Assembly: GCF_044704955.1 (NCBI RefSeq)
Contig: NC_091984.1
Location: 148,738,001 to 148,802,000 of the forward strand
Length of the DNA: 64,000 bases
DNA from: Pristiophorus japonicus
Taxonomy: Eukaryota
Direction of reading: 5' to 3'
Of this stretch, positions 1-56,520 are shown piece after piece. The notes beneath the pieces are model-generated. The model worked only from the letters and a program-made list of their open reading frames with translations. It ran no database searches and was not told the origin of the DNA. Made by a program: the position numbers and the translations under genes. The number at the start of each line of letters is the position of its first letter. The stretch's first letter is position 1.

Positions 1-184
1 AACATCCATTGGTGGGGCAGGGCACATGGAGGTTTACTCTGCATTTCAGTGTGCTGCACCTGGGAGTCTGTGGGGAAGGGAGAGAGGGAGGGAGACAGAG
101 TGAGAGAAACAGGGGAGGGACTTGGAGGGAGAGGGACCGAGGGAGAGGGAGGTGAAGAGGGAGGGAGACAGAGCGGGAGAAGAA

Positions 185-281
185 GAGGAAGTGAAATGTG
201 CTGACGTGGCTTTATCTGGGTGAAGACATTTACATACTGAGGGATGGGCAGTGAGACTCTCGCAGGCTGCAGGTTTATAAA
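185..281 (+). promoter_or_regulatory. Promoter of Ig light-chain V gene 1
   Basis: GGAAGTGAAA (Ets-IRF composite-like, ~187-196), TGACGT (202-207), octamer variant ATTTACAT (228-235) and TATAAA (276-281), 60 nt upstream of the leader ATG. The region is homologous to the V2 promoter. Confidence 0.65.
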
Positions 282-340
282 GCAGAGCCCAGTGAAGGGC
301 AGTTTATCAGTAAGCAGGCACAGGGACAGGAGCAGACACC

Positions 341-866
341 ATGATTTCACCTATCCGGCTGATCTGGCCTCTGGCATTCTGCATCGCAGGTACAAATCTC
401 TCTCCTTCCACGTTTAATATCTCCCTGCTGTCGATTTCTGTCCAACTCGACTGACCAGTGATTGAAGGGCAAATGCTGACACTAGAGGAGAGCTCAGCAA
501 TCTCTCATTTTACAGCATCTCTCTGTGACAGTGCTTACTTCATTTTCTTTCCCCATTTCCCCCTCAGGTATCAGTGGGGACATCATCATGACCCAGTCTC
601 CCCCGGTGCTGTCAGTGAGTGAGGGACAGACTGCAATGATCACCTGTACCGCCAGTGCAGGTACTAGCAACCTTGTTGCTTGGTATCAGCAGAAAGCCGG
701 GCAGAAACCCACTCTGCTGATCTATGCGGCAATAAATCGTTTCACTGGAACCTCCAATCGCTTCACCGGCAGTTACCAGTCCAACACGTTCACCCTGAGC
801 ATCAGCAACGTGCAGAGCGAGGATGTCACAGTCTATTACTGTCAGCAATATTACACCTACCCTCTA
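341..866 (+). CDS. IGKV: Ig kappa-type light-chain V segment 1 (leader exon 341-389, V exon 568-866), unrearranged, open frame
   Basis: Leader [17 protein letters not shown] with GT at 390 and AG at 566-567. V exon reads [13 protein letters not shown]...ITC...WYQQ...YYCQQYYTYPL with both Cys and the Trp conserved, matching the shark kappa (NS4) pattern. Confidence 0.95.
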
Positions 867-894
867 CACTGTGATACACAGCTGTACAAAAGCC
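867..894 (+). other. 12-bp-spacer recombination signal sequence of V1
   Basis: CACTGTG (867-873) + 12 nt + ACAAAAGCC (886-894). Confidence 0.92.
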
Positions 895-999
895 TCAATA
901 TACACAGCGCCACCTCCTGTACTGACTCACCCCACAGTTCTATATAATATATAATAATGGACACACAGCCCCACCTCCTGCACCGTGCTGTCGGCCAAT

Positions 1000-1125
1000 A
1001 CCGCCTCCTCCCTCGCATCCTCCCCCGCCCCTCTCCCACCACCCTCTCCCGCCCCCAACACCGCCCCTCTCCCACCCCCAACACCGCCCCTCTCCCACCC
1101 CCAACACCGCCATCAACACCCACCT
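1000..1125. repeat. C-rich ~23-bp tandem repeat
   Basis: About 4 imperfect copies of CACCGCCCCTCTCCCACCCCCAA. Confidence 0.7.
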
Positions 1126-1439
1126 TAAACTGACACACACAGCGGGCAGGACTTATATGGGCACATGACCCCCCACGGGACACATCACCACTGAGGGCAC
1201 ATGTCCCCTGGCCTCACAATGGAAACCATGGCAACACAGAAACTGCAGGGGTGGACCAATTACAGCAAAGTGGTAAGACTGTGCATTTGTGCCTGAGAGA
1301 GCAACGAGAAGAGAGCTTCAATCTCTTTAACCCTTCGATCCCTGGCTGCCGTCTGAAAATTAAGCCCGAGTTGGCAGAGGCAGTGACTACATTATTCCCG
1401 CTGTTATTCTGCGCCCTGCTCATTCATCTCAACCCCTGT

Positions 1440-1635
1440 GTTAATGTTTCTCTGCTCAATGGTACAGCTCCCCACAGCAAATCCAACCAGAGATTCCTCA
1501 GCTGGATGTGAAACATGGAGAAGCAGAGATGGGCATGGACTGTATGGGGCACTAAAAGACCCACTGGCTCCGAACAATAATAAAACACATTGAAAAGGGG
1601 GGGGATGGGACCAGATGATGGGGCAAGTCCGACAA
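1440..1635 (+). mobile_element. Diverged duplicate of the segment following the env-like ORF (copy of ~11730-11942)
   Basis: Direct nucleotide similarity: TTTCTCTGCTCAATGGTAC...GAAACATGGAGAAGCAGAGATGGGCATGGACTGT...GGGCAAGTCCGACAA occurs in both places. Confidence 0.85.
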
Positions 1636-1774
1636 TTAGGCTGGCCTCCCAGGGGGGTGAGAGGTGAGGAACATACCATTATTGTCCACAGGGAAGACGT
1701 GGGGAGAGGGAGAGTGAGGAACTTACCATTATTTTCCCTGGCGGGGAGGAGAGGAGAGGGAGAAGTGCGCAACA

Positions 1775-3420
1775 TCCCCTCCCTTCCTGTTCCCACTTCA
1801 TCAGGACACAAGTCCACTTGGTGTGGAGTGTTCCCAAATGAATAGAGCGCGGAATGGAGAATGAGGCAGCCTGCTCGGTGTCTGTGAAACCCACCAAGCT
1901 GTAGGGGACCCCGCTAGACAGAGGTGAGGTGGCGGGGTTAGCTGCATAGACGAGGGGCTTGATCCATTTCACCTTTTCTCCCCCACGCATCGTACTCGAG
2001 GGAACACAGGTGAACAGGCTGTGCCTGTCCTAGTCACTGTTTTGGCTGGGATGGGGTCGATGGGATTTCGGTACCGGTGGTGGTGGCTACCCTTCCAGGG
2101 CCATCGAGCATTGTTCGGAGCGCAGTCATGAATGTGTCAAATGTGTGGGGAGAGACTGGCTTCTCGGTCTTGGTCTTTTGGGCAGGGGCTGGAGAATTCT
2201 TCACTGCACTACTCTTCCATGGATTCCTACAATCCTTTCTCCAGTGCCCACTCTTTCCGCACCCGAAACAGGTACGCTTCGTATCGGAGGGATTTCTCCC
2301 CTCCTGGCGCCTTTCCCTCTTATTCTGACTAGGTCTGATTTCGTGGGCCCTTCCCTTGGGTGGGTGCTCTTCCGTCCCCCTGCCGTTCCGGTAGGTGAGG
2401 GTCAGTTGCCTGACCACTCCCTGTTCGGTGGCCTGGGGATCTCTCGGGTCAAACCAGGCCTCAGCCTTTGCTCTTATTCGTGGCGAACTGTTTGTTGCCA
2501 GGCTTTAGAGCCAGTGGGCTCTCTCTCGTCCCGGTTTACGTGATTCCGGTTGAGGTCCCCTTCACAGCCGCTCTGGTACACAGGCCACAGTTGGTCTGTG
2601 AAAGCCTGTGGGGTTTTCCCTTGAGCTGCACTGTCTTCTCTACTCTGGAGAAGGGACTCCCGTCATTACAGCCCATGGCTTCTAGAATATCTTCTTGGAC
2701 GGTGGCATATGTCCTCTGCCCCCTTTTACTCTCGGCAGAGAGGGACTGGTACTGCTTGCCGCCCAGTGAGAGGAGGAGCATTTTTGCTATCTCAGCATCA
2801 TCATACCCGTCAATATCCCCTGCCTGATCCACTTCCACAAAGTGAGCCGAGGGGTCTCCCTTTGGTGTGAGCTTTCCCAGGTGACTTATCATAGCCCTAA
2901 GCTGTTGGGTAGTGTGGGGAACCACAAATTGACTTTCCAGGGGCCCCTGATCCCCAGCACCGGTGGGCGGGCCAAACCGGACACATCGGCCCCGGCTCTG
3001 GCTCTTCCTGCTATGGCTCACCCACCCCTCCCTGCTGCCAGACCGAGCTGAACCTCGGCGCCACAGGTGGTGGTGGTGGTCCGCTATCCCTGTCCACCCC
3101 ACAACCCGTCCACCCCTCCTGCTGCCGAACCGGTATAGTCACCGGCACCACAGGTGGTGGTTGAACAGTTTCCTCATTCTCTTCCAGGTTTACCCGGGCC
3201 GTACCCGGGTTTATTAGGCATACTATGCCTTTTGCCTTGGACAGAGCAAGGGTAAAACTCTTGATTTGTTGCTGGCAGGGACCGTGGTCTCCCGACTCAA
3301 ACCCATTAGTGCTGGCTACTTTATAAGCTCCTGTACATCTCTTAACTTCTTCTCCAGCTCTTTTACTTGAAGGGTAAGGCGAGTATTTTCCTCCCGCAGT
3401 AACTTTTCATTATTCTTAAC
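1775..3420 (-). pseudogene. gag: Partial second copy of ERV gag/protease (paralog of ~7333-8790)
   Basis: Near-identical to 7333-8790. Contains the CFGCGKSGHWRKDC zinc knuckle and capsid-like LRAMISHLGKL..., with frameshifts. Confidence 0.9.
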
Positions 3421-3424
3421 TTTG

Positions 3425-4015
3425 GTACTGAAAATAGTCCTTCCTCTTCATCTTGCCATTGCCTGGCGAAGGCGATTGATATGCCTGCGGGACAGATCTC
3501 CTCTGACCCCAATACAGACATAAATTCCCTGTTCAGACTCCCACCACTTGTTCCAACACATTTCACTCCTCCCCGTGTCCCCGTGGTGGTATGGTACATA
3601 TCATTACCGAGTCTTTTCTACTCATATTCCTGGTTGCATGCATTTTTGCTCAGCTTCCTGAGCCACTCAGGGGAATCTGCCCTTGACAAGTCAAACACAC
3701 ATGTTTGCCCTCCGTAACACTGACCCGCGCAGCAACGACCCGTATCCCGGGGCATGGAGTGGAGGCCTCCCCACAGGTAAACCCTTCCTGGCTGGAGTAG
3801 CGGGTGGAATTAGACCCCAGCCACCCTGGCCACCTCTCTTCGTGGGCGTAAACGGTGAGCTCTTCCACACCCGGTGTACCATCCCCTACAGTCCCGATCG
3901 GTGCTCTCTCTCCTGAACACCCATAAATGAGGGATTCTTCCACGTATCCTCGGCCGCCGCTGCTCATCCTTATCAAGGCGAGCAGGAATAGGACCCTTCC
4001 CATGTTGTTCTTCCT
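3425..4015 (-). pseudogene. env: env-like glycoprotein gene fragment (copy B) with upstream splice acceptor
   Basis: Acceptor TTTTTTATGTGCCCCTACAG (AG 4015-4014), ATG at 4003, signal-like MGRVLFLLALIRMSSG. Shares WPGWLGSNSTxYS and VxVxEGxxVCLxC with the ORF at 10906. Lies 3' of integrase in the same orientation. Confidence 0.7.
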
Positions 4016-4519
4016 GTAGGGGCACATAAAAAATATTGTCCAGCCCTGAGAAAAGCTCTCTGGCTTGACAAAAGGTGATCGAGTTCCAATTTGGGCTCAT
4101 TCCTTCTCGGAGAACACAATTAAGTCTTTAATCGACTGGCTATCTTTTCCAGTTCCTGTAGCGACTGATGTCTGTTATCAACTTTTGTTTCATCTTACTC
4201 TTATCGATCTTGTAGTGACTCTTTTACGGCCTACAAGATGGGGTCTTTTCCTTTCCCCAAGGAATGTTACCTGTGCTTCCTTCAAATACTACTAGGTCTA
4301 TGTCACTAATTTGGCACCGGCTGGTGTCCGGAACTCTTCCATTACCTATTTATACAAATGCTTTTATCCTATTTTACTCGTTTCACTACTTCCACACGCG
4401 TGGTTTACTTTTGGTCGTGGTGACCCGAACAAAAAAACCTTAGACTCATAATCCTACACTATGCTCGATTCTTCTCATCCTAATTATGTACATCTGCCAC
4501 CCATCTCCGGGTGGCCAGG

Positions 4520-7500
4520 TTAATTTCTGTTCTTATCCTTTCTTCTTGAGCCTCTGGGTTTCCAGCGAGGCCGGTAGTAAGTCGGCCTGTACCGCAGGAC
4601 CCGGAGTGTCCTGACCGGACGTGGGTCTGAGTCCCACACTATTGGGGGAACGTCCCCTCCGGTGCTGCAGCAAACCGCCTCTTTGGGGGTGGCTGCATGG
4701 TTCATTGTGTAACCTGAGGGTTCTACCTGGTCGAGGGCTGCGGGCTGGGGACTCACAATTATTGGCTGGTCCACGACTATCTCTTCCGGGTGTCCTTCAT
4801 CGCCCAAGGCTACTGGCTGGGTGTCCCTGTGTGCAGGCTGGTCCCTGATCCTAGGTACCACTTTGCGGCTGGTCCCTCTCCCGGGGCTGAACCACTTAAA
4901 TTGGGGTGCTGGGGACCACGGTGTCTTAGGCCGTGGCGTGTGGAGAGTCCTTCTCAGGGTTCTGACTACTGGGGGTGCATCCGAGTCCCAAATGATTGGG
5001 GGGATAGCTCCTCCAGTAACACAGTCCACCTTCTCTCTGGGTGCAATCTGTGGGTCTGCCACATCTCTTGTGGGATCTCTGCAGTCGGGAGCTGCTGGCT
5101 GAGGATCCCTGCCTTCTGTACGGTTCACTGTTTCTGGCTGTCCCTTACACTTAGCTGCTATCCCGGGGTTAAACAGTTTGCACTGGTTTATGTGGAACCA
5201 CTTTGTTCGGCGGGGCATTTTCATGGCATAGACCATGGGGCTTTCCTTGTCGACAATGTGGTACGATCCCATGTACAGTGCCTCAAAAATCCCCATCTCT
5301 AGCGTAGTTCCTTACCATGACCTGGTCCCCTACCTCCCATTCGTGGTGTTTGCGGGGTTCTAGCAGCATTCGGTTGCTCCGATGCTGTTTTCCCATGTTG
5401 TTAGCAGCCTGCCAGTAAATCTGTTGAAGGTGTTCAAACAGATTCCTGACAAAGCTGTCCTGGCTTGCTTCCCTGAGCTGATTTTCCGTGAGTACCGGGG
5501 CTAATACATGGGTGGGGGTCCACATGGCTCTGCCGGTCATGAGCTCGTACAGGGAGTACCCCGTGCTCTTTGACTGGCTAGCCCAGATCCCCATGAGGAC
5601 CAGTGGTAGGAACACGAGCCACTTCTTGGGTGAGCCCCCCATCTCCTTATGTAAGCTTTCCTTTATAGTGCGGTTTAAACACTCCACAGGCCCGGATGAC
5701 TGCGGGTTGTGGGCGACATGCCATTTCTCCTCGATGCCGAGCACCTTAAGGGTCTCCTGCATCATCTGCCCGGTGAAGTGATTCCCTTGGTCGGACTCCA
5801 CATACTGGGGTAGTCCCCATCGGGAGAACACCTCCCTTACCAGGAATCTAGCTGTTCCCAGAGCAGTGGCTGTTCTGCATGGGAAAGTTTCCACCCATTT
5901 GGTGAATACATCCACCAACACTAGGCAGTACTCTGGCATCCCTGGGCAAAGGGCAGGGGATCGATGTAATCGACCTGGATCGACTGCCAGGGTCCCTCTA
6001 CCCTCCTGATATATCCCAGAGACACCTTCCTTTTCTGGGGGTCGGGGTTCTTGACAGCGCACACCAGACATCTTCCCTGAGTCCCGGCCACCACCCTGCC
6101 TGTTCCACCCGTTGCCAGGTGGTCTCAGGTCCGGGGTGTCCTGCTCCTGGACCCCCGTGGGCCAGCTGGAGGAATTCTCTCCGGTGTTGTTGCGGTACCA
6201 CCCATTGCTCCCCCCTGAACAGCATGCCTTCTCTAATGACAATCGCTGCTGTGCCGTCCGGGCTGCCTACCTTTTCCCCTTTAGCTAGCATGTTCAGGAC
6301 TGTTTTGAGGACGGGGTCTTGGGCCTGAGCTGTTTTCAGGTCCGGGGGCAATGCTACCCCTGCCTTCACTGTCGTCCTAAACCTGCATCTGACTGCTGTG
6401 ATGGGGCCTGGGTTGTACAGATCCAGCGCACACAGCCAGTCCCAGGAATTTTACTTCTTTCTGGCAGATCTGTGCCTTCTTGGGATTCATTTTAAACCCT
6501 TCTTCTTTCAGCAGCTCCAGCAGCTCAGCCAACAGTGGGCCATGCTCCTCCCCCTCCTCAGTGAATTGGAGCAGGTCGTCCACATACTGTACCAGTTGCT
6601 GGGGTCTGCTGAAGCTCTTTAAACAGTTGGCCATACATTGGTGGAAAATGCTAGGGCTGTTGTGGAAGCCCTGAGGGAGACAGTTCCAAGTGTATTGCTG
6701 GCCTTTAAAGGTAAAAGCAAACTTGTACTGGTCTTCCCTCCTTAAAGGTATGGACCAGAACCCGTTGGAAATATCCAGCACCATGAAGGTGGTTGTGGAG
6801 GCTGGGATACTTCCAATGAGGTCGGCAACAGCAGCAACAGTGGGTGCACAGGCGGGGATGCTACGGTTGAGTACTCGATAATCCACCTTGGCTCTCCAGG
6901 AGTTGTCTGACCACAATGGAGAGTTCAAATGAGTAGCTATGGGTCTCAATACCCACTGTTTAACCAAAGAACCCAAGGATGTTTCCATGTCTGCCTCCGC
7001 CTCCCTGGGGAAGTTGTACTGTTTCTGTGGTCGGGTCATGGGGTCCCCATCTATGCTAAACTCAACCCCGTTTATCCTCCCACAGTTGTGTTTGTGAGTG
7101 GCAAAAGCTGCAAGGTTTGCCCTCACATACTCTTTGTACTCCATCGGAGTGTTACTGACCAGTGATTCAAGGTAATGCCCTCCTTTGGCTTCATGGTGCA
7201 CATCGTCCCTTTTCCCCGTTTCTCTGGGATAACCACCACCTCACTCTCCTGTCCCGTACATACTGCCCCCCAAAGACAGTGGTTCCTTAAATCCACTAGG
7301 ATCCCGTGGCCTAGAACGAAGTCAGCCCTAGGATGCCCCTCCCTTCCTGTTCCCACTTCCTCAGGACACAAGTGCACTTGGTGTGGAGTGTTCCCAAATG
7401 AATAGAGAGCGGAACGGAGAATGAGCCAGCCTGCGCGCCGCCTGTAAAAACCCACCAAGCTGTAGGGGACCCCGCTAGACAGAGATGAGGTGGTGGGGTT

Positions 7501-7572
7501 AACTGCATAGTTGAGGGTGCTTGAGGCACCGGTATCCAGCAGATAAGTCCCTTTCACCTTTTCCACTTCCAT
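4520..7572 (-). pseudogene. pol: Retrovirus-type pol (protease, RT, integrase with long C-terminal extension; RNase H region largely deleted), frameshifted
   Basis: YLLDTGAS (PR). PQKQY, LDISNGFWSIPL, LPQGFHNSP, QYVDDLL (RT). AHGGPGAGH..WWPGL (HHCC), VDVFTKW, SDQGNHF, PQSSGPVE (IN), and a degenerate GPY/F module MGSYHIV..WFHINQCK. Confidence 0.93.
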
Positions 7573-7641
7573 CTGTACGGTCAGTCTCCCCCATGCATCG
7601 TACTCGAGGGAACAGAGGTGAACAAGCTGAGCCTGTCCTAG

Positions 7642-9257
7642 TCACTGTTTTGGATGGGATGGGGTAGATGGGATTTCAGTACCAGTGGCGATGGCTACCC
7701 TCCCAGGGCCATCTAACATTGTTTGGAGCGCAGTCATGAATGTGTCAAACGTGTGAGGAGAGACTGGCTTCTCGGTCTCGGTCTTTTGGGCAGGGGTTGG
7801 AGAATTCTTTCCTGCGCTACTCTTCCATGGGTTTCTACAATGCTTTCTCCAGTGCCCACTCTTTCCGCACCCGAAACAGGTACGTTTTGTATCAGAGGGG
7901 TTGACCCCTCCTGGCACCATTCCCTCTTATCCTGACTAGGTCTGATTTCGTGGGCCCTTCCCTTGGGTGAGTGCTCTTCCGTCCACCTGCCGTTCCGGTA
8001 GGCTAGGGTCAGTTGCCTGACCAGTCCCTGTTCGGTGGCCTGGGGATCTCTCGGGTCAAACCAGGCCTCAGCCTTTGTTCTGATCAATGGCAGAGAGGGA
8101 CTGGTACAGCTTGCCGTCCAGTGAGAGAAGGAGCATTTTTGCTATGTCAGCATCATCACACCCGTTAATATCCCCTGCCTGATCCACTTCCATAAAGTGA
8201 ACCGCGGCGTCTCCCTTCGGAGTGAGCTTTCCCAGGTGACTTATCATAGCCCTAAGCTGTTGGGTAGTGTGGGGAACCACAAATTGACTTTCCAGGGGCC
8301 CCTGACCCCCAGCACCGGTGGGCGGGCCAAACTTCTGTTGCTGGACCGGGCACATCGGTCCCGGCTCTGGCTCTTCCTGCTCTGGCTCGCCCACCCCTCC
8401 CTGCTGCCAGACCGAGCTGAACCTCGGCGTCACAGGTGGTGGTGGTGGTCCGCTATCCCTGTCCACCCCACAACCCGTCCACCCCTCCTGCTGCCGAACC
8501 GGTATAGTCACCGGCACCACAGGTGATGGTCGAATAGATTCCTCCTTCTCTTCCAGGTTTACCCGGGCCGTACCCGGGTTTATTAGGCATACCATGCCAT
8601 TGGCCTTGGACAGAGCAAGGGTAAAACTCTTGGTCTGTTGCTGGCAGGGACCGTGGTCTCCCGACTCAAATCCATTAGTGCTCGCTACTTTGTAAGTTGC
8701 CTGTACGTCTCTTAACTTCTCCTCCTGCTCGTTTACTTGAAGGGTAAGCGAGTATTTTCCTCGCACAGTATCTTTTCATTATTCTTAGCCTCTGTGACCT
8801 GACACTGTAAATAGTCCTGGCTGTTCTTGAATCTCTCCATTAGCTGCGCCTTTCCATGCTTCAGCTTACGGAATTCTCCCCATAACCTTTTTCTTGCCAC
8901 AGCCCTTTCATGTGATATTTCTGCACATTCCCATAGTTCTGCCTGTAGTGACTCAATGTTCTTGTCTCGGAGTTGGAGCTGTCGTTGTAAACAGGCCAAC
9001 CAAATAGCCTTTTCTACCGATTCGTTATTGTCTTTGCTTGCAGTCCACTGGGCCGCAGCGTCTCCCGGATGCTCAGCGCGCAACAGACTAAGCACCCATT
9101 CCTTAGTGACATTCACTTTCTTATACACATAGGAGGAAATCCTCTCTTCCATCTTGGTTCTTTCCTCCAAAACAGCACTCTCTGCATCACATAATTTATA
9201 CCAAAGTCCTGCCGCGGTCGCCATTCTGTAGGGGTTGGCCTCGGGGATCAGATTCAC
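7642..9257 (-). pseudogene. gag: ERV gag with N-terminal coiled-coil region, Pro-rich linker, capsid-like region and CCHC knuckle
   Basis: ORF pieces 8733-9257 (heptad-rich LQRQLQLRDKNIESLQAELWE...), 8068-8766 and 7642-7920 (CFGCGKSGHWRKHC). Confidence 0.85.
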
Positions 9258-9295
9258 CTCTGACCTTCTGAGCAGTTCAAATCGCTCCCACTCCC

Positions 9296-10716
9296 TGTGT
9301 TCTAGACTTTGGATTTAATTGGGGACATGACAAAGTGCAAGAGACAACTGGTTTTGGTGCAAAGAACTTCGATTTTATTAAGGACAAGAAAGTACAATGT
9401 CAGAACTTGCAATCATTAGAATAAAGAACACTTCATCACACGTTCAAAAGGGGTTACAGAAAATAATACACCTCCCACCTCCCAATGCCTGAAACTCCAG
9501 GGCAAACAGGGATCATGCTCACTCGTCCTCTTATTGTCAGTTGGCGGTGTTTCACAATTTAGGGATCGCTGGACTCTGAAGCTTCTGCTTGCCGTACTTC
9601 GAACGTTGTAGACGACTTCTTACTGCATAATCTTTAGTTGGGTGGTGTCCGCTGATGCGGTAGGGTGCATATTGCACTTATGGGGTGAGTACTCACTTTT
9701 CTTCTGTCAGCAATCGGTTATAAAGTTCTTTAGGTAATGTTTCACCTGTTGGTAGCTAGGAACAGATTGTAGAGTGGAAACTTTCGAATCTTTTGTTTCT
9801 TCTTGAGGAGCTTTGTTCTTGGAGTTTAACGATCGCGGTGGTTTTGATATTACCACGTTGGCTGTGGTCAGTTGCTGCCGCGATGGCGATGTCCGAAATT
9901 ACTGGAACTGCTTTTCTCTGCCTTGGTATGTTCTCCCTTCTTCTTCGGTAGCAGAGCAGTGTAGCCCAGGAATGTCGTCGCGGCTGAAGATGTTGATGTT
10001 CAGAAGAGTTGCATCGAAGGTTGTGTAGCAAGCTCTCTGGAAGGCTCGTTAAAACTGCTATGGTGGTCTCTCTCCTTTTCCTCTCCTTCCCCTGCCCTCA
10101 ATCGTTAAAACCAAGGCCCCAGTTATACTTTGGGAGCTGTTCTGATCTGCGTGCCAAATCAGCCCCGATTCTTTGTCTTAATTTTGGTGGGCTTGATATT
10201 TCTTTGTCATATTTTGGCGGGCCCAATAATGGTAACCTGTCTCGGATGTGTCGATCTGTCGAATTTGTTTCTTGATCGGGAAAAATTAGTTTTGGTATTT
10301 GCGATATCTGCCTAGGCCTGGGTTTTCCATGCGGGCTGGATGGGCCAATGTCATTATCTATGCGCTGGAATGGGTTTCCTGCTCAGAGCGATGGCTGGCT
10401 GCCTCTGGGTTGATTGTTGCTATGTTAACGTCTCCTGGAGAGAAGGGTTTTCGAGTTTACACAATTCCCCAGACAATTTGCTTTAGCTTCAATACCCCAG
10501 ACAGCTTCAATACCCAAAACTGGTTTCTTTGGAGGATAGTTATCCTTTAGTTTTCATCCCTTTTCACACAGACCCAATATGTCTTGTAAAATCCCAAATT
10601 CGATTAAAACTCGTAGTTTCTTCCATATGCATTTTAGGATCCCAAACTTTCTGGCTGATAGTTCCAAATTTAATTTCCTTTCCAATGAGTCCAAATACTG
10701 GGGGGGTTTTCCCACA
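9296..10716 (-). mobile_element. Long LTR-like non-coding segment
   Basis: On the minus strand it begins TGTGGG and ends ...CTAGAACACA, with AATAAA (9374-9379) ~80 nt from the end. No TSD or PBS found. Confidence 0.4.
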
Positions 10717-10867
10717 AATTTTGCAATCCTACACAAGCATCGGGATAAAAGGAGAGGGAAGCAGTGATTGTAAAAAGGAGTTATGTACATTTGTGAATAA
10801 CTGAAGAAGGACCTGTGAGGGGGAGGCCCCACAGAGCAAAAGTATTTATTTCATTTTTGTCTTTATA

Positions 10868-11942
10868 GGAGCGAATCGAGCCAAGGGTACGAGAGGAGGT
10901 GGACGTTGTGGATAGGCCTGTGGATGGCCATTATTATTAAAGGATTGGGAGATCGGGGAGACACCGAGACATTCCTTACACACGGGTGTATGGGAGGAAC
11001 CGGCCCCACTGTAACTCAAGGGGGAGCCATACGGAGCAACAAGGGCACAAACACCTCTGCTCACACTGGGAGCTGGCCAGGGTGGTTAGGGTCAAATTCG
11101 ACCAAGTACTCCAGACAAACCGAGGGTAAACTTGGGGAGGTGTCAGTGTCCTGCCCCAGGCTAAACATCACGGCCAGGAATGTACGGGTGAGAGAGGGGA
11201 GACGAGTTTGTCTGGAATGTAAAGGGATTACCCCCATGGGAGGGTGGTGGTGGTTACAGAAAACAGACAGGGGAAAAGTTAATGCATCCACAGAATGGGA
11301 GAAACTGGGTAATAACTCAAACAGGCGGAGCACAGGAACAAGAGAAGGGGTGAAATTGTGTTGGGGAAAAAGGTGGAAGGCGGAACAAGCGATTTGTGTC
11401 TGTGTAGTTGGATCTAGCCACAAGTGCTGGGGAGGTGTGGCGATTGTTTTTAAACAACAATGCCAGGATTCCGGGTCAGGAATGAATTGGACGCAGGGTT
11501 TTGATTCTTGCGTGACCTTGAACCCGCCAAAAACAGTCAACACAACCGAGCTGATCGCGAACAGATTAAAACCTCTCCCTAAAATGCTGGAGATTCCAAA
11601 CCAAGAAATTCCATGTCCTATCCTAAATCCAGGGCCTAAGAACGGGCTGGTGTTAATCCCAACAGGGAAAATGTTGTATCATACTGTGTATTATGAAGTA
11701 GTGTCGGTTATTCTAAATTTAACAGAGTTATAATTTCTCTGCTCAATGGTACTGCTCCCCACGGCAAATCCAACCAGAGAGATTTCTCAGCTGGCTGTGA
11801 AACATGGAGAAGCAGAGATGGGCATGGACTGTGTGGGGGCACTAAAGGACCCACTGGCTCCGACCAATAATAAAACAGTAGGTAAGGACACGGTGAAAAG
11901 TGGGGGATGGGATCAGATGATGGACCTGGGCAAGTCCGACAA
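10868..11942 (+). pseudogene. env: env-like glycoprotein gene (copy A), open for 275 codons (10906-11733)
   Basis: Acceptor TTTCATTTTTGTCTTTATAG (AG 10867-10868), hydrophobic N-terminus, several N-X-S/T sequons (NTS, NST, NIT, NAS, NNS, NWT, NTT, NLT), Cys-rich, homologous to copy B. Confidence 0.7.
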
Positions 11943-12239
11943 GGAGGCTGTCCTGCCGGCCAGAGCAATGGTGAAATACGCTGGCCTCAGCCTGCCTGGC
12001 ATTGTGGAAGGGCAGGCAGCTCCGATCATTACCGTCCCAGACTGTCAGCCAATCACCGTGGCTTCCTCCTTCGGAGAGCTGTTCAAATCTCCACGGGTTT
12101 CACAGCTGCAGCTCACAGACACGCTGGTGAGCAGATTGTTGGGGTGTTTGCTCTACACTTGTCCAGTTGCTGTGTGTCACGGGCCTGGGCAACATTACAA
12201 TTGGAGCCCATTACTGGTCTCATAAAGTGACGGGCACAT

Positions 12240-13259: not shown

Positions 13260-14122
13260 CTTCCTCAGTAACTGAGGAACATACCATTAATGTCCATGGG
13301 GGTTGAGGTGGTTGGGGAGAGGTGAAAAACATACCATTATTGTTCCGGGGGTTGTCAGCGAGGGAGCGGTGAGGAACATACCATTATTTTCCCCTGGGGG
13401 CGAGAGGGGGGGAGGTGAGAAACATACAATAATTTTTCCCAGTGTGGGGGAGAGAGGAGAGGCAGAGGTGAGTAACATAACATTAGTGTCCCTGGGAGGG
13501 GAGACGAGAGGGAGAGTTGAGGAACAGACCATTATTGGCACTGGGGAGAGGGAGCGGTGAGGACCATCCCATTATTGTCCCCAGCGGGGGAGAGAAGAGG
13601 GACCAGTGAGGAACATACCATTGTTGTCCCCGGTGGGGTGGGCGGGGAGTGGTGGAGAGGAAGTGGAGAGATTAGGAACATACCATTATGTCCCGCTAGG
13701 GGAGAGGACGAGTTGAGGAAGATATTATTATTTTCCGTGGAGAGGTTGTGGGGGAGAGGAGAGGGAGAAGTGAGGAACATACCATTATTCTCCCTGGCAG
13801 GGTTGGGGGTAGAGAAGAGGGAGAGGTGAGGAACATACCATTATTGTCCCCGGGGGGGAGAGGGAGAGGTGAGGAACGTACCATTATTGTCCCCAGGAGG
13901 GGAGAGGGAGAGGTGAGGAACATACCATTATTGTCCCTGGTGGGGGAGAGGAGAGGGAGAGGTGAGGAACATACCATTATTGTCCTCAGGGGGGGAGAGG
14001 GAGAGGTGAGGAACATACCATTATTGTTACCGTTGGGGTAGGGGCAGAGAAGGAGATGTGAGGAACATACCATTATTGTTACCGTTGTGGGAGGGGCAGA
14101 GAGGGCGAGGTGAGAAACATAC
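13260..14122. repeat. Purine-rich minisatellite, variable ~40-60 bp unit (also at ~1660-1775)
   Basis: About 17 copies of core GAGGAACATACCATTATTGTCCC separated by G/A-rich spacers. Confidence 0.9.
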
Positions 14123-15790
14123 TGTCGTGTATGGAGAAAGAATCAGACTGAACACTGTGAGCTCAAAGTAAAGTGTGACCTGAGTCTTTTATTGCAGGTC
14201 TCCAGAGCGCCTCTTCAACCTGTGAGGCCTCCTTAAATACCTGTGCTTCCAAGGGATTATGGGATCCCTTGGGACTCCAGGGGATGAGCCCTCTGGTGGC
14301 TGTACAGAGTAAATATAAATCCACATATATAACAACACTCCCCCGCCCCACCAAAGTCAATAGTGTAACTATTTACAATGTGAGACGATCTGGGGTCCTT
14401 CTTGCCCTGGTTGATCATCTCAGTGTGAAGGCTGGTGTTGTTGAATCATTTGTTGGGCCCTCGCTGGGCTGCTGTGCAGCTGGCTTTGCTGGGCTGCCTG
14501 GTGTGTTGGGCCCTGCTGGGCAGCTGTGGATGATGGGTTCTACTTCGTGATCAACTGTGGTGCCGGTTGCCACTGGTGTGTATGTTGGGGGATCAAAAAA
14601 GGTAGGGTCCAAGGTGGGTTGCTCAGGGTAGTCTGTTAATCTGTGTTTGATTTGGTCCAAGTGGTTCCGGTGAATGAGTCCATTTGAAAGTTTGACCCGA
14701 AACACCCTGCTCCACTCTTTGACCAGGACAGTGCCGGGAAGCCACTTGGGACCTTGTCCATAATTTAATACAAATACAGGATCATTGATTTCAATCTCAC
14801 GTGACACATTTGCGCTATCATGGTGTGCACTTTGTTGAAGCCGCCTGCTCTCTACCTGTTCATGTAGATCAGGGTGAACTAACGAGAGCCTTGTCTTAAG
14901 TGCTCTTTTCATGAGCAGTTCAGCAGGTGGGATCCCAGTAAGTGAGTGGGGTCTCGTGCGGTAGCTGAGCAGGACTCGGGATAGGCGAGTCTGCAGTGAG
15001 CCTTCAGTTACCCTCTTCAAGCCTTGCTTGATGGTTTGCACTGCTCTCTCTGCCTGACCATTGGACGCCGGTTTAAACGGGGCAGATGTGACATGTTTGA
15101 TCCCGTTATGGGTCATGAATTCTTTGAACTCAGCACTGGTAAAACATGGCCCGTTGTCGCTCACCAGGACATTGGGTGGGCCGTGTGTGGCAAACATGGC
15201 GAGCAGGCTTTCAGTGGTGGCAGCGGACGTGCTAGCCGACATTATCTCACATTCAATCCACTTGGAGTACGCGTCTACAACCACAAGGAACATTTTACCT
15301 GTCGACTTGTACCCTAGACCACGGTTTGGGGGCCAAGACCATAAACTTAGCAGCGCCTTCCTAGGTACATTTCTTAACTGCGAGCATGTATTATATCTGT
15401 GAACGCAGGACTTTAAGTCCGCATCGATACCGGGCCACCACACGTGGGATTTGGCTGTCGCTTTCATCATTACGATGCCTGAGTGGGTACTGTGGAGGTC
15501 ATTGATGAAGGTGTCTCTGCCCTTCTTGGGGACCACTACACGATTGCCCCACAGAAGGCAGTCTGCCTGTATAGACATTTCATCTTTGCGCCGCTGGAAC
15601 GGCTTTATCTCTTCCTGCATTTCCACTGGGACACTGGACCAGCTCCCGTGAAGCACACAGCTTTTGAATAGAGATAATAAGGGGTCCTGGCTTGTCCAGG
15701 TTTTGATCTGCTGGGCAGTGACGGGTGATCACTCACTCTCAAATGCTTCCATAACCATGCCTAGGTCTGCGGGCTGTGCCATTTCCATGA
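14123..15790 (-). mobile_element. Gypsy LTR retrotransposon 3' portion (integrase + 3' LTR 14123-14334), truncated at a CR1
   Basis: ORF 14415-15656: LHSTHSGIVMMK..VWWPGID, VDAYSKW, SDNGPCF, SNGQAERAVQ. A G-rich PPT lies next to a TG...CA LTR containing AATAAA. Confidence 0.92.
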
Positions 15791-18770
15791 GTAAAAGTGG
15801 AGGGCGGAGAAACCCAAGGCAAAAAACAAAAAGGGCCACTTTGCAGTAAAATTCTAAATGGTTAAAATGTGTTAAAAAGGCTAGCCTGAAGGCTCTGTGC
15901 CTCAATTCGAGGAGTATTCGGAATAAAGTGGACAAATTAACTGTGCAGAGAGCAGTTAACGGATACGATGTGGTTGGCATCACGGAGACATGGCTCCAGG
16001 GTGACCAAGGCTGGGAAGTCAACATCCAGGGGTATTCAGCATTTAGAAAGGATAGACAGAAAGGAAAAGGAGGCGGGGTGGCGTTGCTGGTTAAAGAAGA
16101 AGTTAATGCAATAGTGAGGAAAGACATTAGCTTGGATGATGTGGAATCGGTATGGGTGGAGCTACGGAATACCAAAGGGCAGAAAACGCTAGTGGGAGTT
16201 GTGTACAGACCTCTAAACAGTAGTAGTGATGTTGGGGAGGGCATCAAACAGGAAATTAGGGGTGCATGCAATAAAGGTGCAGCAGTTATCATAGGTGACT
16301 ATAATATGCATATAGATTGGGATAACCAAACTGCAAACAATACGGTGGAGGAGGATTTCCTGGAGTGCATAAGGAATGGTTTTCTAGACCAATATGTTGA
16401 GGAACCAACTCGGGGGGAGGCCATCTTAGACTGGGTGTTGTGTAATGCGAGAGGATTAATTAGCAAACATGTTGTGCGAAGCCCCTTGGGAAGAGTGACC
16501 TAATATGGTGGAATTCTACATTAGGATGGAGAATGAAACAGTTAATTCAGAGACCATGGTCCATAACTTAAAGAAGGGTAACTTTTAAGATATGAGGCAT
16601 GAATTGGCTAGGATAGATTGGCGAATGATACTTAAGGGGTTGACAGTGGATGGGCAATGGCAGACATTTAGAGACTGCATGGATGAATTACAACAATTGT
16701 ACATCCCTGTCTGGCGTAAAAATAAAAAAGGGAAGATGGCTATCAAGGGAAATCAGGGATAGTATTAAAGCCAAGGAAGTGGCATACAAATTGGCAGAAA
16801 TAGCAGCGAACCCGGGGACTGGGAGAAATTTAGAACTCAGCAGAGGAGGACAAAGGGTTTGATTAGGGCAGGGAAAATGGAGTACCAGAGAAAGCTTGCA
16901 GGGAACATTGAGATGGACTGCAAAAGCTTCTATAGATATGTAAAGAGAAAAAGGTTAGTAAAGACAAACGTAGGTCCCCTGCAGTCAGAATCAGGGGAAG
17001 TCATAACTGGGAACAAAGAAATGGCAGACCAATTGAACAAGTACTTTGGTTCGGTATTCACTAAGGAGGACACAAACAACCTTCCGGATATAAAAGGGGT
17101 CAGAGGATCTTGTAAGAAGGAGGAACTAAGGGAAATTCTTATTAGTCGGGAAATTGTGTTGGGGAAGTTGACGGGATTGAAGGCCGATAAATCCCCAGTA
17201 CCTGATGAACTGCATCCCAGAGTACTTAAGGAGGTGGCCTTGAAAATAGCGGATGCATTGACAGTCATTTTCCAACATTCCATTGACTCTGGATCAGTTC
17301 CTATGGAGTGGAGGGTAGCCAATGTAACCCCACTTTTTAAAAAAGGAGGGAGAGAGAAAACAGGGAATTATAGGCCGGTCAGTCTGACATCGGTAGTGGG
17401 TAAAATGATGGAATCAATTATTAAGGATGTCATAGCAGCGCATTTGGAAAGAGGTGACATGATAGGTCCAAGTCAGCATGGATTTGTGAAAGGGAAATCA
17501 TGCTTGACAAATCTTCTGGAATTTTTTGAGGATATTTCCAGTAGAGTGGATAAGGGGGAACCAGTTGATGTGGTATATTTGGACTTTCAGAAGACTTTCG
17601 ACCAGGTCCCACACAAGAGATTAATGTGCAAAGTTAAAGCACATGGGATTGGGGGTAGTGTGCTGAAGTGGATTGAGAACTGGTTGGCAGACAGGAAGCA
17701 AAGAGTAGGAGTAAATGGGTACTTTTCAGAATGGCAGGCAGTGACTAGTGGGGTAACGCAAGGTTCTGTGCTGGTGCCCCAGCTGTTTACATTGTACATT
17801 AATGAATTAGACGAGGGGATTAAATGTAGTATCTCCAAATTTGCGAATGACACTAAGTTGGGTGGCAGTGTGAGCTGCGAGGAGGATGCTGTAAGGCTGC
17901 AGAGTGACTTGGATATGTTAGGTGAGTGGGCAAATGCATGGCAGATGAAGTATAATGTGGATAAATGTGAGGTTATCCACTTTAGTAGTAAAAACAAAGA
18001 GACAGACTATTATCTGAATGGTGACAGATTAGGAAAAGGGGTGACCTGGGTGTCATGGTACATCAGTCATTGAAGGTTGGCATGCAGGTACAGCAGGTGG
18101 TTAAGAAAGCAAATGGCATGTTGGCCTTCATAGCGAGGGGATTTGAGTACAGGGTAGGGAGGTGTTACTATAGTTGTACAGGGCCTTGGTGAGGCCACAC
18201 CTGGAGTATTGTGTACAGTTTTGGTCTCCTAACTTGAGGAAGGACATTCTTGCTATTGAGGGAGTGCAGCGAAGGTTCACCAGACTGATTCCCGGGATGG
18301 CGGGACTGATATATCAAGAAAGACTGGATCAACTGGGCTTGTATTCACTGGAGTTCAGAAGAATGAGAGGGGATCTCATAGAAACGTTTAAAATTCTGAC
18401 GGGTTTGGACAGGTTAGATGCAGGATGAATGTTCCCAATTTTGGGGAAGTCCAGAACCAGGGGTCACAGTCTAAGGATAAGGGATAAGCCATTTAGGACC
18501 GAGATGAGGAGAAACTTCTTCACCCAGAGAGTGGTGAACCTGTGGGATTCTCTACCACAGAAAGTTGTTGAAGCCAATTCACTAAATATATTCAAAAAGG
18601 AGTTTGATGTAGTCCTTACTACTAGGGGGATCAAGGGGTATGGCGAGAAAGCAGGAATGGGGTACTGATGTTACATGTTCAGCCATTAACTCATTGAATG
18701 GCCATGCAGTATCGAAGGGCCGAATGGCCTACTCCTGCACCTATTTTTTATGTTTCTATTTTTCTATGCC
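15790..18770 (+). mobile_element. CR1-clade LINE, nearly complete ORF2 (APE + RT) with stops and frameshifts
   Basis: NSRSIRNK, ITETWL, GGGVALLV, NYRPVSLTS, LDFQKTFD, GVTQGSVL, KFANDTK, RPHLEYC; CR1 3' hairpin and tail. Confidence 0.95.
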
Positions 18771-22335: not shown

Positions 22336-25300
22336 TTGCAGGGCAGTTCTGCCCCATGGAGTGCCATGTGGGAAGTCCTGGACGCTTCTCGTGGCCTGGA
22401 CGACCACATGTGCAGGAAGTGTCACCAGCTACAGCAACTCGAGCTCCGCGTTTCAGAGATTGAGCGGGGGCTGGAGTCACTGCAGTGCATCCGCGAGGCT
22501 GAGAACTTCGTGGATAACACGTTTCTAGAGGTGGCCACCCGACAGCTTAAGAGTGTGCAGATAGAAAGGGAATGGGTGACCACCAGACAGAAGAGGAGGT
22601 CCAGGCAGGTAGTGCAGGTGCCATTATTGTGTTCTGAGTACTGGTGGGGGCGATGGTTCCTCGAGGAAATGCAGCCAAAGCCAAGTCCACGGCACCACGG
22701 GTGGCTCAGCTGCACAGGGGGGAGGAAGAAGAGTGGAAGAGCAATAGTGGTAGGGGATTCGATAGTTAGGGGAACAGACAGGCGTTTCTGCGGTCACAGA
22801 CGTGACTCTAGGATGGTATGTTGCCTGTCTGGTGCCAGGGTCAAGCATGTTACTGAGTGGCTGCAATACATTCTGAGGGGGGAGGGTGAACAACCAGATG
22901 TTGTGGTCCATATCGGTACCAATGACATAGGTAGAAAAAGGAATGAGGTCCTACAGGCAGAGTTAAGGGAGCTGGGAGAGAGATTAAAAAGCAAGACCTC
23001 AAAAATAGTAATCTCTGGATTACTCCCGGTGCCACGTGCTAGTGAGTACAGAAATAGGAGGATAGAGAAGATGAATGTGTGGCTGGAGAGATGGTGCAGG
23101 AGGGCTTTAGTTTCCTGAGGCATTGGGATTGTTTCTGGGGGAGATGGGACCTGTACAAGCTGGACGGGTTGCACCTCAACAGAACCGGGACCAATATCCT
23201 CATGGAGGGGGAGTTTGTTGTTGCTGTTGGGGAGGGTTTAAACTAGCTTGGCAGGGAATGGGAACCGGAAAATAGATTCAGTGGGGAGATAAGCAAAGCT
23301 GGAATTGGAAAGCAGAAAATTAGAAAGTGAATCTGGAAGACCGAGGAAACAAAGCCTAAAAAATAGACAGCAAGGCAGTTTGGCAGTGCTAAACGGCATA
23401 TACTCCAATGCAAGGAGTATGGGGAATAAGGCAAATGAGCTGAGAGCACAGATAGACATTTCTATACTCCTCTAAAGTTCCTGTATTATTGAGCCCTCGG
23501 TATCTATCATAAGCCTTCCTTTTTTACTTTATCCTACACTGTATTTCCCTTGACATCCAGGGGCCTCTAGATTTGTTAGCCCATCCTTTTTCTTTAAGGG
23601 AACAGACTTACTCTGAAACCACAGGATTTCCTCCTTGAATGCCTCCCACTGCTCTGACACTGATTTACCTTCAAGTAGTCGTTTCCAGTCCACTTTGGCC
23701 AAATCTCATCTCATTTCAGCAAAATTGGCTTTTCCCCAATTGAGAACTTTTATTCCTGGTCGATCTTTGTCCTTTTCCATAACTACCCTAAATCTAACTA
23801 AATTATGATCACTGGCACCAAAATGCTCTCCCACTGATACCCCTTCCACCTGCCCCTCTTCATTCCCCAAAACCAAGTCAGAAACGTCCCCTCCCTTGTT
23901 GGGCTTGTTACATACTGGCAAAAAATTTTATCCTGAATGCATTTTAGGAATTCCGCACCCTCTATACCTTTCACACTAATTTTATCCCAGTTAATATTAG
24001 GTATTTGAAATCTCTTACTATTGCTGCCCTATAGTTTTTGCACTTGTCAGAAATGTGCCTACATATTTGCTCTTCTCTCTCCCTCTGACTATTTCGGGGT
24101 CTATAGTACACTCCCAGCAGTGTGATTACCTCTTTTTCATTCTTCAATTCGACCTATATGGCCTCATTTGATGATCCTTCCGACATATCATCCCTCCTCA
24201 CAGCTGTAATTGTTTCTTTCAATTGTTTGAGGAGTATAGAAAGTGCAGGGTGCAATTAAAAAGGAAATTAGGAAAGCAAAGAGAGAGCATGAAAACATTT
24301 TGGCAAGTAAAATCAAGGAAAACCCAAAGAGGTTTTATAAATACATTAAGAGCAGGAGGATAATTAAAGAAAGAGTAGGGCCTATTAGAGACCATAAAGG
24401 TAATCTGTGTGTGGAGGTGTAAGACGTGGGTAGGATTGTTAATGAATAATTTGTGTCTGTTTTCACAAAAAGAGAGGGACAATGCAGACATTGCAATCAG
24501 GGAGGAGGAGTGTGAAATATTAGGTGAAATAAACATAGTGAGAGAGGAAGTATTAAGGGGCTTAGCAGCTTTGAAAGTGGATAAATCCCCAGGGCCTGAT
24601 CAAATGTATCCCACGCTGTTAAGAGAAGCAAAAGAGGAAATAGCAGAGGCTCGAACCATCAATTTTCAATCCTCTCTGTCTACAGGTGTGGTGATGGAGG
24701 ACTGGAGGGCTGTTAACATGGTACGTTTGTTTAAAAAGGGAGTCAGCCTCACCTCGGTGGTGGGAAAATTATTGGAAAAAATCCTGAGAGACTGGATAAA
24801 TCTTCATTTAGATAGACGGATTAATCAAGGACAGTCAGCATGGATTTCTTATGGGAAGGTCGTGTCTGACTAACTTAATTGAATTCAGCGAGGAAGTAAT
24901 AAGTAGGGTCGATGAGGACAGTTCGTATGATGTAGTGTATATGGATTTTAGCAAGACATTTGATAAGGTGCCACATTGCAGACTGATCACGAAAGTAAAA
25001 GCCTATCGGATCCAGAGCAAAGTGGCAAGTTGGATCCAAAATTGGCTCAGAGGCAGGAAGCAAAGGGTAATGGTTGATGGGTGTTTTTGTGACTGGAAGG
25101 CCATTTCCAGTGGGGTTCTGCAGGGCTCAGTACTAAGTCCCTTACTTTTTGTGGTACATATCAATGACTTAGACTTGAATGTAGGGGGTATGATTAAGAA
25201 GTTTGCAGATGATACTAAAATTGGCCATGTTGTTAATAATATAGAAAAAAGCTTCAGACTGCAGGAATATATCAATGGACTGGTCAGGTGGGCAGAACAG

Positions 25301-25465
25301 TGGAAAATGGAATTCAATCCAGAGAAGTGTGAGGTTATGCATTTGGGGAGGTCTAACAGGGCAAGGGAATACACATTAACTGGTAGGACACTGAGAGGTG
25401 CAGAGGAACAAAGGCACCTGGGTTTGCATGTCCACAGATCCCTGAAGGTAGCAGGCCAGGTAGAT
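22336..25465 (+). mobile_element. CR1 LINE with ORF1 (zinc finger/leucine zipper + SGNH esterase) and degenerate ORF2 with an internal inversion
   Basis: CRKC..LELRV, VGDSIVRG, HIGTND, DGLHLN. RT motifs at 24409-25465. The endonuclease part (23459-24220) reads on the minus strand. Confidence 0.9.
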
Positions 25466-25894
25466 GGGTTTTTACGACAATCTGGCAGTTTCATGGTCAC
25501 CATTACTGACACTAGCTTTTTATTCCAGATTTATTTCATTAACTGAATTTAAATTCCCCAGCTGCCATGGTGGGATTTGAACTCGTGTCTCTGGATCATT
25601 GGTCCAGGCCATAGTCGTCCATAGCTCTTTCAAAGAGCCAGCACAGGTTTGATGGGCTGAATGGCCTCCCTCTGTGCTGTGAGATGCTGTGACTAAGGAG
25701 CGGGGCTCCAGCTAGCGTAGGCAATGTGGGATCAAGGGTTGAAAGCAGGGGTATGGGTGGAGCCCATATAGATGTACCACAAGGGGGCACTACAGAATCG
25801 ATTGATCCAATTATTGGCAGCGTGGAAATCGGGGATGGAAATAGCTTCAATAAAATGTCTGCTGCGACTTTTAAAGTGGTCAACATCACCAGCA

Positions 25895-27174: not shown

Positions 27175-27765
27175 TCAATCCATTCTGATCTTGTACAGTC
27201 TCTCCATTTCCATTTCTTTAGTTTCATTACTCACTAGGCATATTATACCTTCAGGATTTCTTATTCTGGGAGTAATGCTTAGGAAGGGAGGCTGATGGTT
27301 ATTATCATAATTGGGCTGGTACCATCCCTGGAAGGCTGTGAGTTTATACCCTGCCGACCTCCATTCTGTTTGCTCCTTCGTTTCTGGCCCTTTAGTTAGT
27401 TTTGTCCTGTTTTGCACTGTCAACCATTCTACCATTTCTGATTCGTTAAAGGGGACAGATCTCAGGGGAATACCCCCCCTGGAGTGGACAGGTACATGGG
27501 AACATATCCAACAACTCGACAAGTTTCTTTCTTGAGCATACCTATGACTCAGTGCCATAAATACGTTTACGTGCAATTCCCTTCGGTGGTGGGTCTGTAC
27601 CCCTGGTGTAATCAATAATGCGAAGTAAAACCCTGTCAAGCCCAGCACCATCAGTCCCCATAGTCCATACAGTTCCTTATTCAGTCTTCCTTTTTCTGTT
27701 CCTCTGATTCCTTCGTCCCTTCCTCCTGGTCGGGTGCCCGTTTGCAATGGGATGCGTGGATCCAT
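27175..27765 (-). CDS. env: Truncated retroviral env (signal peptide + N-terminal SU)
   Basis: Hydrophobic LWGLMVLGLTGFYFALLI, then NLSSCWICSHVP (CWIC). Overlaps the pol 3' end; no TM subunit. Confidence 0.8.
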   Translation of the reverse strand: MDPRIPLQTGTRPGGRDEGIRGTEKGRLNKELYGLWGLMVLGLTGFYFALLITPGVQTHHRRELHVNVFMALSHRYAQERNLSSCWICSHVPVHSRGGIPLRSVPFNESEMVEWLTVQNRTKLTKGPETKEQTEWRSAGYKLTAFQGWYQPNYDNNHQPPFLSITPRIRNPEGIICLVSNETKEMEMERLYKIRMD

Positions 27766-43235: not shown

Positions 43236-43299
43236 ATTGAGGCAAAATCTGATATTCTGGATGTCGCCGCTCCTTTTAACGCACTCTCCAAAGCACACA

Positions 43300-56190: not shown

Positions 56191-56492
56191 TTTGTGAGAT
56201 TATTCGGATTGAGGACACAGGGACCACCCAGTGTCTCCGTGCTGTCTGAATGTACAGAGTAGAGCTGTGAGATTCTCAGTGATGAAGACACAGCCCCAAC
56301 TCCTCTCTGACCCACTCCATCCTTTCCCAATTCACTGCAGCTTCCAGCTGAATGTTCCTGCCGTCACTCCCATCGAGCTGTGTGTCAGTCATGTGTAAAA
56401 CCGTACAGGAGGTGGGGCTGTGTGTCCATTATTATATATTATATATAACTGGGGTGAGTCAGTATTGGAAGTGGCACTGTGTATATTCAGGA

Positions 56493-56520
56493 GGTTTTTG
56501 TACGGCTGTGTATCACAATG
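56493..56520 (-). other. 12-RSS of V2 with non-canonical heptamer
   Basis: CATTGTG + 12 nt + ACAAAAACC. Confidence 0.9.

Follow-up and report, generated by a model that had tools for sequence, protein, structure and literature searches.

The provirus described here lies on the minus strand of a 64,000-nt stretch of the Pristiophorus japonicus genome (NC_091984.1, positions 148,738,001 to 148,802,000; hereafter the window), where it runs in decayed form from position 10733 to position 3439. This copy is inactive and rearranged. It comes from an endogenous retrovirus (ERV) family with many copies, which likely belongs to the canonical retroviruses resembling snakehead retrovirus (SnRV; class III, 'clade Huo') and has an envelope protein (Env) of predicted paramyxovirus F type. 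By the reverse-transcriptase (RT) test that defines lokiretroviruses (Loki) the element is not one of them, yet it is Loki-like in the predicted type of its Env. An SnRV-like group has already been reported in sharks, and the locus is one dead copy of a known kind. An earlier account made from the letters alone (the sequence-only reading) had described a gag with coiled coil and CCHC knuckle, followed by protease, RT, integrase (IN) and env, within 3425..9257, and had proposed a spuma- or Loki-like element. That gene order stands, on the minus strand, and the core of the span is real; the provirus itself, however, reaches 10733, with its primer-binding site (PBS) and 5' long terminal repeat (LTR) at this end (Table 1).

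The placement is carried by the RT. The motifs PQKQY, LDISNGFW, QYTWNCLPQGFHNSP and YVDD, which had been singled out before, all lie within the open reading frame (ORF) at 6377-7240 (-), which matches Pfam RVT_1 with E=1e-33. The window RT is 44.8% identical to that of SnRV, 30-40% to gamma- and epsilonretroviruses, 31.5-33.5% to foamy viruses, 28-31% to Loki and 24-30% to Gypsy elements; ERV proteins of amphibians and coelacanth, the nearest named relatives in the database, reach 48-60%, and one further relative stands at 81%. The earlier statement that this RT is closer to foamy than to Gypsy RTs survives narrowly (32-34% versus 24-30%), but murine leukemia virus (MLV) RT outscores foamy RT, with 187 versus 174 bits in a PDB search. 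In the published Loki alignment SnRV presents LDISNGFWSI and LPQGFHASP, DISNGF appears in one Loki row, and the LPQGFHNSP of the window RT corresponds to PFGYxNS/xG in Loki.

References for the trees comprised SnRV, gamma-, epsilon-, foamy, alpha-, beta-, lenti- and deltaretroviruses and three Loki elements. The labels of the IMG/VR reference viruses were assigned from length, motif and tree position, that of SnRV being checked against its published motif and length and those of Loki against the published alignment. In the RT tree (46 rows; 17 of 62 dropped, one restored) Loki and Gypsy stand apart from the rest at 100/98, and foamy viruses join class I/II at 96/94 with the window element outside. 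The RT+tether tree (31 rows; seven dropped, including the lentivirus) returns the same two splits at 99/96 and 97/96, and unites shark, amphibian and coelacanth rows at 80/90. In both, the family falls on the canonical side of the starred branch and outside foamy plus class I/II.

The foamy (spuma) identity proposed earlier does not withstand these trees, in which the family lies outside the foamy (100/100; mammalian-type rows only, with fish foamy-like ERVs not among them) and Gypsy (100/99) clades. Foamy IN is its best PDB match (107 bits), its Env fold matches that of foamy viruses, its LTR is long and its tether Gypsy-like; all the same, a foamy-like ERV or an env-bearing Gypsy element is extremely improbable, as the PDB holds no IN labeled SnRV or Loki to rival the foamy one, gag and pro are in frame, and a second RNase H is present. 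An RT within Gypsy and, usually, a single RNase H mark Metaviridae, and the family has neither. Foamy pol is expressed separately, and foamy Gag is not known to carry a zinc knuckle.

The extension of the Loki host range that the sequence-only reading had put forward fares no better, and we hold it very improbable that this is a true lokiretrovirus, which would carry Loki into cartilaginous fishes. Its F-like Env (for which Loki gives the top hhalign score), the grouping of its IN, a TGA-CTA gag/pro junction and the dual RNase H speak for Loki, and so does the RT-only test given below. The RT trees and motifs speak against it, as does the RNase H tree, where Loki and foamy viruses join at 91/89 to the exclusion of the shark rows (154 columns, with weak support at deep nodes). 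The coil and the capsid share a single open frame in two sister loci of the family (L016 and L022), so the coil is not a separate smc gene. A Loki RT query of the genome gave at best 40% identity among 150 scored of 192,689 candidates, the six top matches checked were all of the SnRV-like type, and the Loki motif pattern had no match, which does not prove absence. The statement of the sequence-only reading that Loki had not been reported from chondrichthyans is borne out by the available part of the PMC7947760 supplement (0 of 5 genomes), and a literature search of partial coverage found no title on shark lokiretroviruses.

Other genomic copies, to which the sequence-only reading had pointed as a check, show tether, RNase H, LTR pairs and a similar PBS. 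Their tether matches Gypsy RH profiles at E~1e-18 to 1e-20 (SnRV tether, ~1e-11) and their RNase H reaches E~1e-15 to 1e-21; this dual arrangement, deleted in the window, is common to all retroviruses. The window IN matches H2C2 (E=1e-11) and rve (E=6e-11) in Pfam. In the IN tree, from which four rows were dropped and in which CGIN1 is not among the rows (the RNase H tree lost seven, including all of class II), Loki is nested within the shark, amphibian and coelacanth group at 91/91. The phylogeny that had been called for thus gives a divided answer, the RT pointing away from Loki, foamy and Gypsy and the IN leaning to Loki.

Several results weigh against membership in the SnRV-like group. The IN is 38-40% identical to Loki and 30.5% to SnRV, and SnRV IN falls elsewhere in its tree. 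Over RT+tether the family is as close to Loki (33.3% identity) as to SnRV (32.9%). The attachment of SnRV to the group is weak, the RT tree resolving no link and the RT+tether tree giving 72/75. Forcing shark, amphibian and coelacanth rows with Loki is rejected on RT+tether (p-AU, from the approximately unbiased test, 0.0068), under a constraint picked once the trees had been seen; forcing shark with Loki on RT alone is not rejected (p-AU 0.096). The PBS is unlike that of SnRV, and the gag/pro stop context is Loki-like, not SnRV-like. Sampling is thin, with three Loki rows and with ERV-L/S, fish foamy-like ERVs, Odin, CGIN1 and the elephant-shark CmiERV outside the trees.

These points would suit a lineage of its own, made up of the shark, amphibian and coelacanth elements near the canonical base, beside and not inside the SnRV clade, and keeping ancestral traits that Loki also has: the Gypsy-like tether, the IN, readthrough at UGA-CUA and the F-type Env. 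The loose attachment of SnRV, the nesting of Loki IN, the stronger tether match than that of SnRV and the shared stop context all favor it. We nevertheless consider it unlikely: an IN tree forced to join SnRV without Loki is not rejected (p-AU 0.15), the taxon sampling behind such a split is thin, and in the available text of PMC4977317 the SnRV-like clade already takes in ERVs of coelacanth, amphibians and sharks. Placement within the SnRV-like canonical retroviruses is the reading that we retain.

Gag is in keeping with that placement, since SnRV Gag likewise has a long coil and a CCHC knuckle, although in BLAST of Gag against SnRV the knuckle is the sole matching part. Both features had been noticed before and both are present: the knuckle at about 7837-7878 gives zf-CCHC E=0.024, below the curated cut-off, and E=1.4e-4 in the gag duplicate at 2034-2504; the N-terminal coil (ORF 8736-9314, residues 97-170) was located by a crude heptad score only. 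The capsid region gave only weak retrotransposon-gag leads among Atlas features, and the protease of a sister copy scores poorly in Pfam (E=0.17). The start codon is uncertain, at 9224 or 9152. The gag frame includes the ATG at 9222-9224 (-), which shares bases with the start of the PBS. From this ATG as far as MEERISSY no stop interrupts the frame, either in the window or in three of six sister loci, and Gag may start at the PBS with almost no leader. A similar PBS occurs in six of the eight sister loci scanned. ARAGORN called tRNA-Arg(TCG) in two of the four genomic loci scanned and tRNA-??? in the other two.

At the gag/pro junction, a strict pattern of TGA-CTAG in frame with pro is met in the window, in its duplicate and in 2 of 10 sister loci. 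Elsewhere the junction reads TGA CTAGG (L069) or TGA CTAAG (L068) in Loki, and TAG G in SnRV, walleye dermal sarcoma virus (WDSV) as well as MLV. The UGA-CUAG context supports readthrough in other systems, and SnRV has UAG GGC, according to the available text of PMC13517186; UGA readthrough would have yielded Gag-Pol in the ancestral virus. The integrase and this signal probably function as in Loki. The in-frame TGA CTA gag/pol junction of the two lokiretroviruses (L069:3733-3740; L068) is an observation of its own, which suggests UGA readthrough there as well and which the Loki papers, in the parts covered, do not mention.

The prediction of an F-type Env comes from the natural 706-residue frame of a sister copy. 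The representative library holds 39 relatives at E<=0.001; among ten looked up, eight were named, from Mustelus, Chiloscyllium (2), Heterodontus, Scyliorhinus, Pristiophorus, Rhinoraja and the frog Pelodytes, the close ones being 80% (Pristiophorus) and 57% (Rhinoraja) identical. A 30-sequence profile aligned by hhalign with Loki Env at 98% (E 3e-14), WDSV at 95%, SnRV at 94% (E 1.4e-7 over 291 columns) and foamy at 70%, the MLV control giving 3%. For an AlphaFold2 model of residues 239-706 (predicted local distance difference test score 68, predicted template-modeling score 0.53), Foldseek ranks paramyxovirus and pneumovirus F first and foamy Env next, with human parainfluenza virus 3 F best (E 7e-11), walleye epidermal hyperplasia virus 1 (WEHV-1) Env at 4e-8 and foamy Env at 2.5e-5. 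In a viral structure library the model is matched by lispivirus-type F, baculovirus F and WEHV/WDSV Env; each of the top 12 rows in VIA is an F protein or a foamy Env, the best having Z 11.6 at a root-mean-square deviation (rmsd) of 18 over 352 residues, and the Atlas features are Baculo_F 0.94 and Fusion_gly 0.92. The frame also holds a furin-type RPRR site.

Other Env results pull the opposite way. Template-modeling scores are only 0.3-0.48 with large rmsd, values to be expected when a protein with two states is modeled as a monomer, and the prediction is thus one of fold level only. Pfam and PDB sequence searches with Env were negative: none of 30 family members matches Pfam Fusion_gly, and the Env profile finds no F protein among PDB sequences. 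Pairwise BLAST gives borderline values (E 0.069 for SnRV, E 0.002 for Loki). The F-like Env that the sequence-only reading had associated with Loki is predicted in sister copies; the relevant part is missing from the window copy, and the type is not Loki-specific. Loki, SnRV, WDSV and foamy Env align with the family profile and MLV Env does not; taken with the fold match, the IN grouping and the stop context, this suggests that F-type Env is old in retroviruses. With profile values of 94% and 95%, and WEHV-1/WDSV models matched by Foldseek, the Env of SnRV and WDSV may be unrecognized F-type fusogens. The N-terminal ~240 residues of Env (window 3439-4096, -) carry a C...W...G-I-Y-x-C pattern like that of an immunoglobulin (Ig) V domain, and one Env relative is annotated 'Ig-like domain-containing'; judged from sequence, this region is a possible receptor-binding domain.

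The family is large. A 601-nt RT query returned 3269 first-look candidates in the 5.9-Gb genome, a figure that is not a copy number, and all 40 that were scored are at least 91% identical. Sister proviruses measure about 11 kb and carry LTRs. Their LTR pairs diverge by 0.041-0.097 (Kimura two-parameter; six pairs, with pair ends set by BLAST ends). Applying the published rates 2.2e-10 (available text of PMC4422223) and 5e-10 (available text of PMC10699275) and a third, mammalian rate of 2.2e-9 gives about 9 to 220 Myr, and the age is thus poorly constrained.

Comparison with the surroundings of nine genomic copies defines the damage to the window copy. Relative to all nine it lacks ~1.16 kb at 6423/6424, and residues 389-776 of protein P0020 have no counterpart in it by tblastn. 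Its env corresponds to about residues 1-203 of the 706-residue frame; the F-like part begins near residue 245 and is thus invisible here. No second LTR was found in the window or in the preceding 10 kb, and no clear target-site duplication in the flanks inspected. Repeats spaced 5.4 kb apart, considered as LTRs, are the duplicated gag-pro piece, and the ORF at 4520-5311, considered as an accessory gene, is the IN C-terminus, since it continues IN in sister copies.

Table 1 Features of the provirus and adjoining family fragments in the window
Feature	Position	Strand	Basis or remark
5' LTR, 1507 nt, TGTAGG...CCTACA ends	9227..10733	-	matches both LTRs of sister proviruses
PBS, 18/18 complementary to tRNA-Arg(TCG) 3' end (+CCA)	9206..9223	-	genome's own tRNA
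gag: coil ~8805-9026, capsid-like middle, CCHC ~7837-7878	7642..9224	-	broken by frame switches
gag/pro junction, in-frame TGA then CTAG, likely readthrough signal	7638..7644	-	sequence context
Protease (LLDTGAS)	7162..7641	-	ORF; tblastn with protein P0020
RT, ends at deletion	6424..7222	-	Pfam, identity table, tblastn
~1.16-kb deletion junction (rest of RT, tether, RNase H)	6423..6424	-	sister comparison
IN: H2C2, core, SH3-like C-terminal domain, long proline-rich tail; frame-broken	4520..6423	-	Pfam, sister copies
env, 5' part only; F-like part and 3' LTR absent	3439..4096	-	sister comparison
Second gag-pro fragment, same family, adjoining truncated env	1776..3441	-	91.5-94% identity to 7336-8787
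env fragment, related ERV subfamily, outside provirus	10819..11960	+	partly repeated at 1440-1650

The ERV sits in a segmentally duplicated Ig light-chain cluster region. The arrangement of truncated env and second gag-pro fragment, without the deletion, recurs 2.8 Mb away at 85-94% identity (L027/L028; window 1-10725), a likeness that marks the region as segmentally duplicated. Light-chain V segments lie at 486-947 (+; V-set E 4e-15) and 56389-56910 (-). The env fragment at 10819-11960 is 43.5% identical to sister Env over residues 5-284; it and the piece at 1440-1650 (+) each run into a ~45-50-nt minisatellite-like repeat, which is present again at 13270-14130. A fragment of a different, epsilon-like ERV occupies 27175-29942 (-). 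It comprises a tether, an RNase H, an IN with MLVIN_C and the beginning of env, and in the trees its IN and its RNase H fall with WDSV. Two further SnRV-like ERV lineages were seen in the same genome, one with an RT 53% identical to that of the window family (L098) and one with an RT 66% identical to a Xenopus tropicalis protein (L100). Gypsy LTR-retrotransposon and long interspersed nuclear element (LINE) fragments lie at 14415-15728, 34944-38415, 37894-42223 and 61746-63317, and at 15850-18073, 24379-25546 and 43236-43967; the LINE fragments we take to be of CR1 type.

From these parts a history can be proposed. The ancestral virus would have been transcribed from its 1.5-kb LTR and primed by tRNA-Arg(TCG), to which the PBS matches. 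Gag, which bears a coiled coil at its N terminus and a single zinc knuckle, would have been made directly, and Gag-Pol through readthrough of the in-frame UGA in its CUAG context. Pol would have carried the tether and RNase H found in sister copies and a Loki-like integrase, for which support is moderate, and Env, with its furin-type RPRR site, a predicted fold of the paramyxovirus F and foamy Env kind. Insertion among Ig light-chain V segments was followed by the loss of 1.16 kb from pol, of the larger part of env and of the 3' LTR; the copy also gained the second gag-pro piece, and the region was segmentally duplicated.

An SnRV-like shark lineage is published, elephant-shark CmiERV lineage I clustering with SnRV in the available text of PMC4422223. 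This comes near to the known shark ERV clade that the sequence-only reading had set against its own proposal, and the window family may belong to that lineage; a motif search in its available sequences found nothing. The mosaic of Loki-like and SnRV-like traits matters for the question whether the ancestral retroviral Env was of F type. The available part of PMC7947760 leaves the origin of Env open and treats F-like Env as a Loki peculiarity; that of PMC11468914 shows foamy Env to be F-like, with no mention of SnRV, walleye viruses or Loki, and that of bioRxiv 2021.11.23.469661 deals with gamma-type Env only. No statement on F-type Env in SnRV-like ERVs was found in a literature search of partial coverage, most subscription journals lying outside it. 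Now that a lineage resembling SnRV is predicted to have the F fold, and profiles indicate it for SnRV and WDSV themselves, an ancestral F-type Env becomes testable with public genomes. We offer tentatively, at rather less than even chances, that the elasmobranch family forms, along with its relatives in amphibians and coelacanth, an early-branching canonical lineage that keeps the F-type Env, Loki-type IN and UGA-CUA readthrough shared with Loki, the F fold being the ancestral Env. If so, this fold (F-type also in foamy viruses, WDSV/WEHV and SnRV) was later replaced by gamma/beta-type Env, which would decide among the four open Env-origin scenarios of Wang and Han, and the 'replaced' integrase of Loki was inherited from, or donated by, that lineage.

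Comparison with known systems shows where the family stands. SnRV and the SnRV-like clade Huo (PMC4422223, PMC6001957 and PMC4977317, as far as available) provide the closest named RT. SnRV shares the Gag with coiled coil and single CCHC, the in-frame gag/pro stop, tether plus RNase H and a homologous Env; the Gag architecture and the stop are traits of SnRV itself, whereas clade Huo is defined by Pol phylogeny. SnRV differs in its LTR (518 bp versus about 1.5 kb here), its stop context (TAG-GGC versus TGA-CTAG), its PBS, its IN (30% identical and placed apart) and its Env, the family Env being shorter. Lokiretroviruses (PMC7947760, PMC9040795, available text) share the dual RNase H with Gypsy-like tether, the F-like Env and the TGA-CTA junction, and the family IN leans towards theirs. 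They differ in RT clade and motifs, in RNase H position and in PBS; the coil lies inside a CCHC-bearing gag here, while some Loki have a separate smc gene, and the family Env is longer by about 240 residues at its N terminus. Foamy viruses (for their Env structure, available text of PMC11468914) share the F-type Env core (Foldseek as above; VIA Z 8.3) and a long LTR, but differ in RT clade and in that their pol overlaps gag in another frame, while gag-pro is in frame here. Nearest in the RT and IN trees are the amphibian and coelacanth Pol proteins annotated 'NYNRIN-like' and 'Gypsy integrase-like' (P0001, P0003, P0022, P0023), albeit with only about 45-50% identity. The tail of P0001 matches a frog member of this Env family (40% identity, E 8e-35), which ties this type of Pol to this type of Env.

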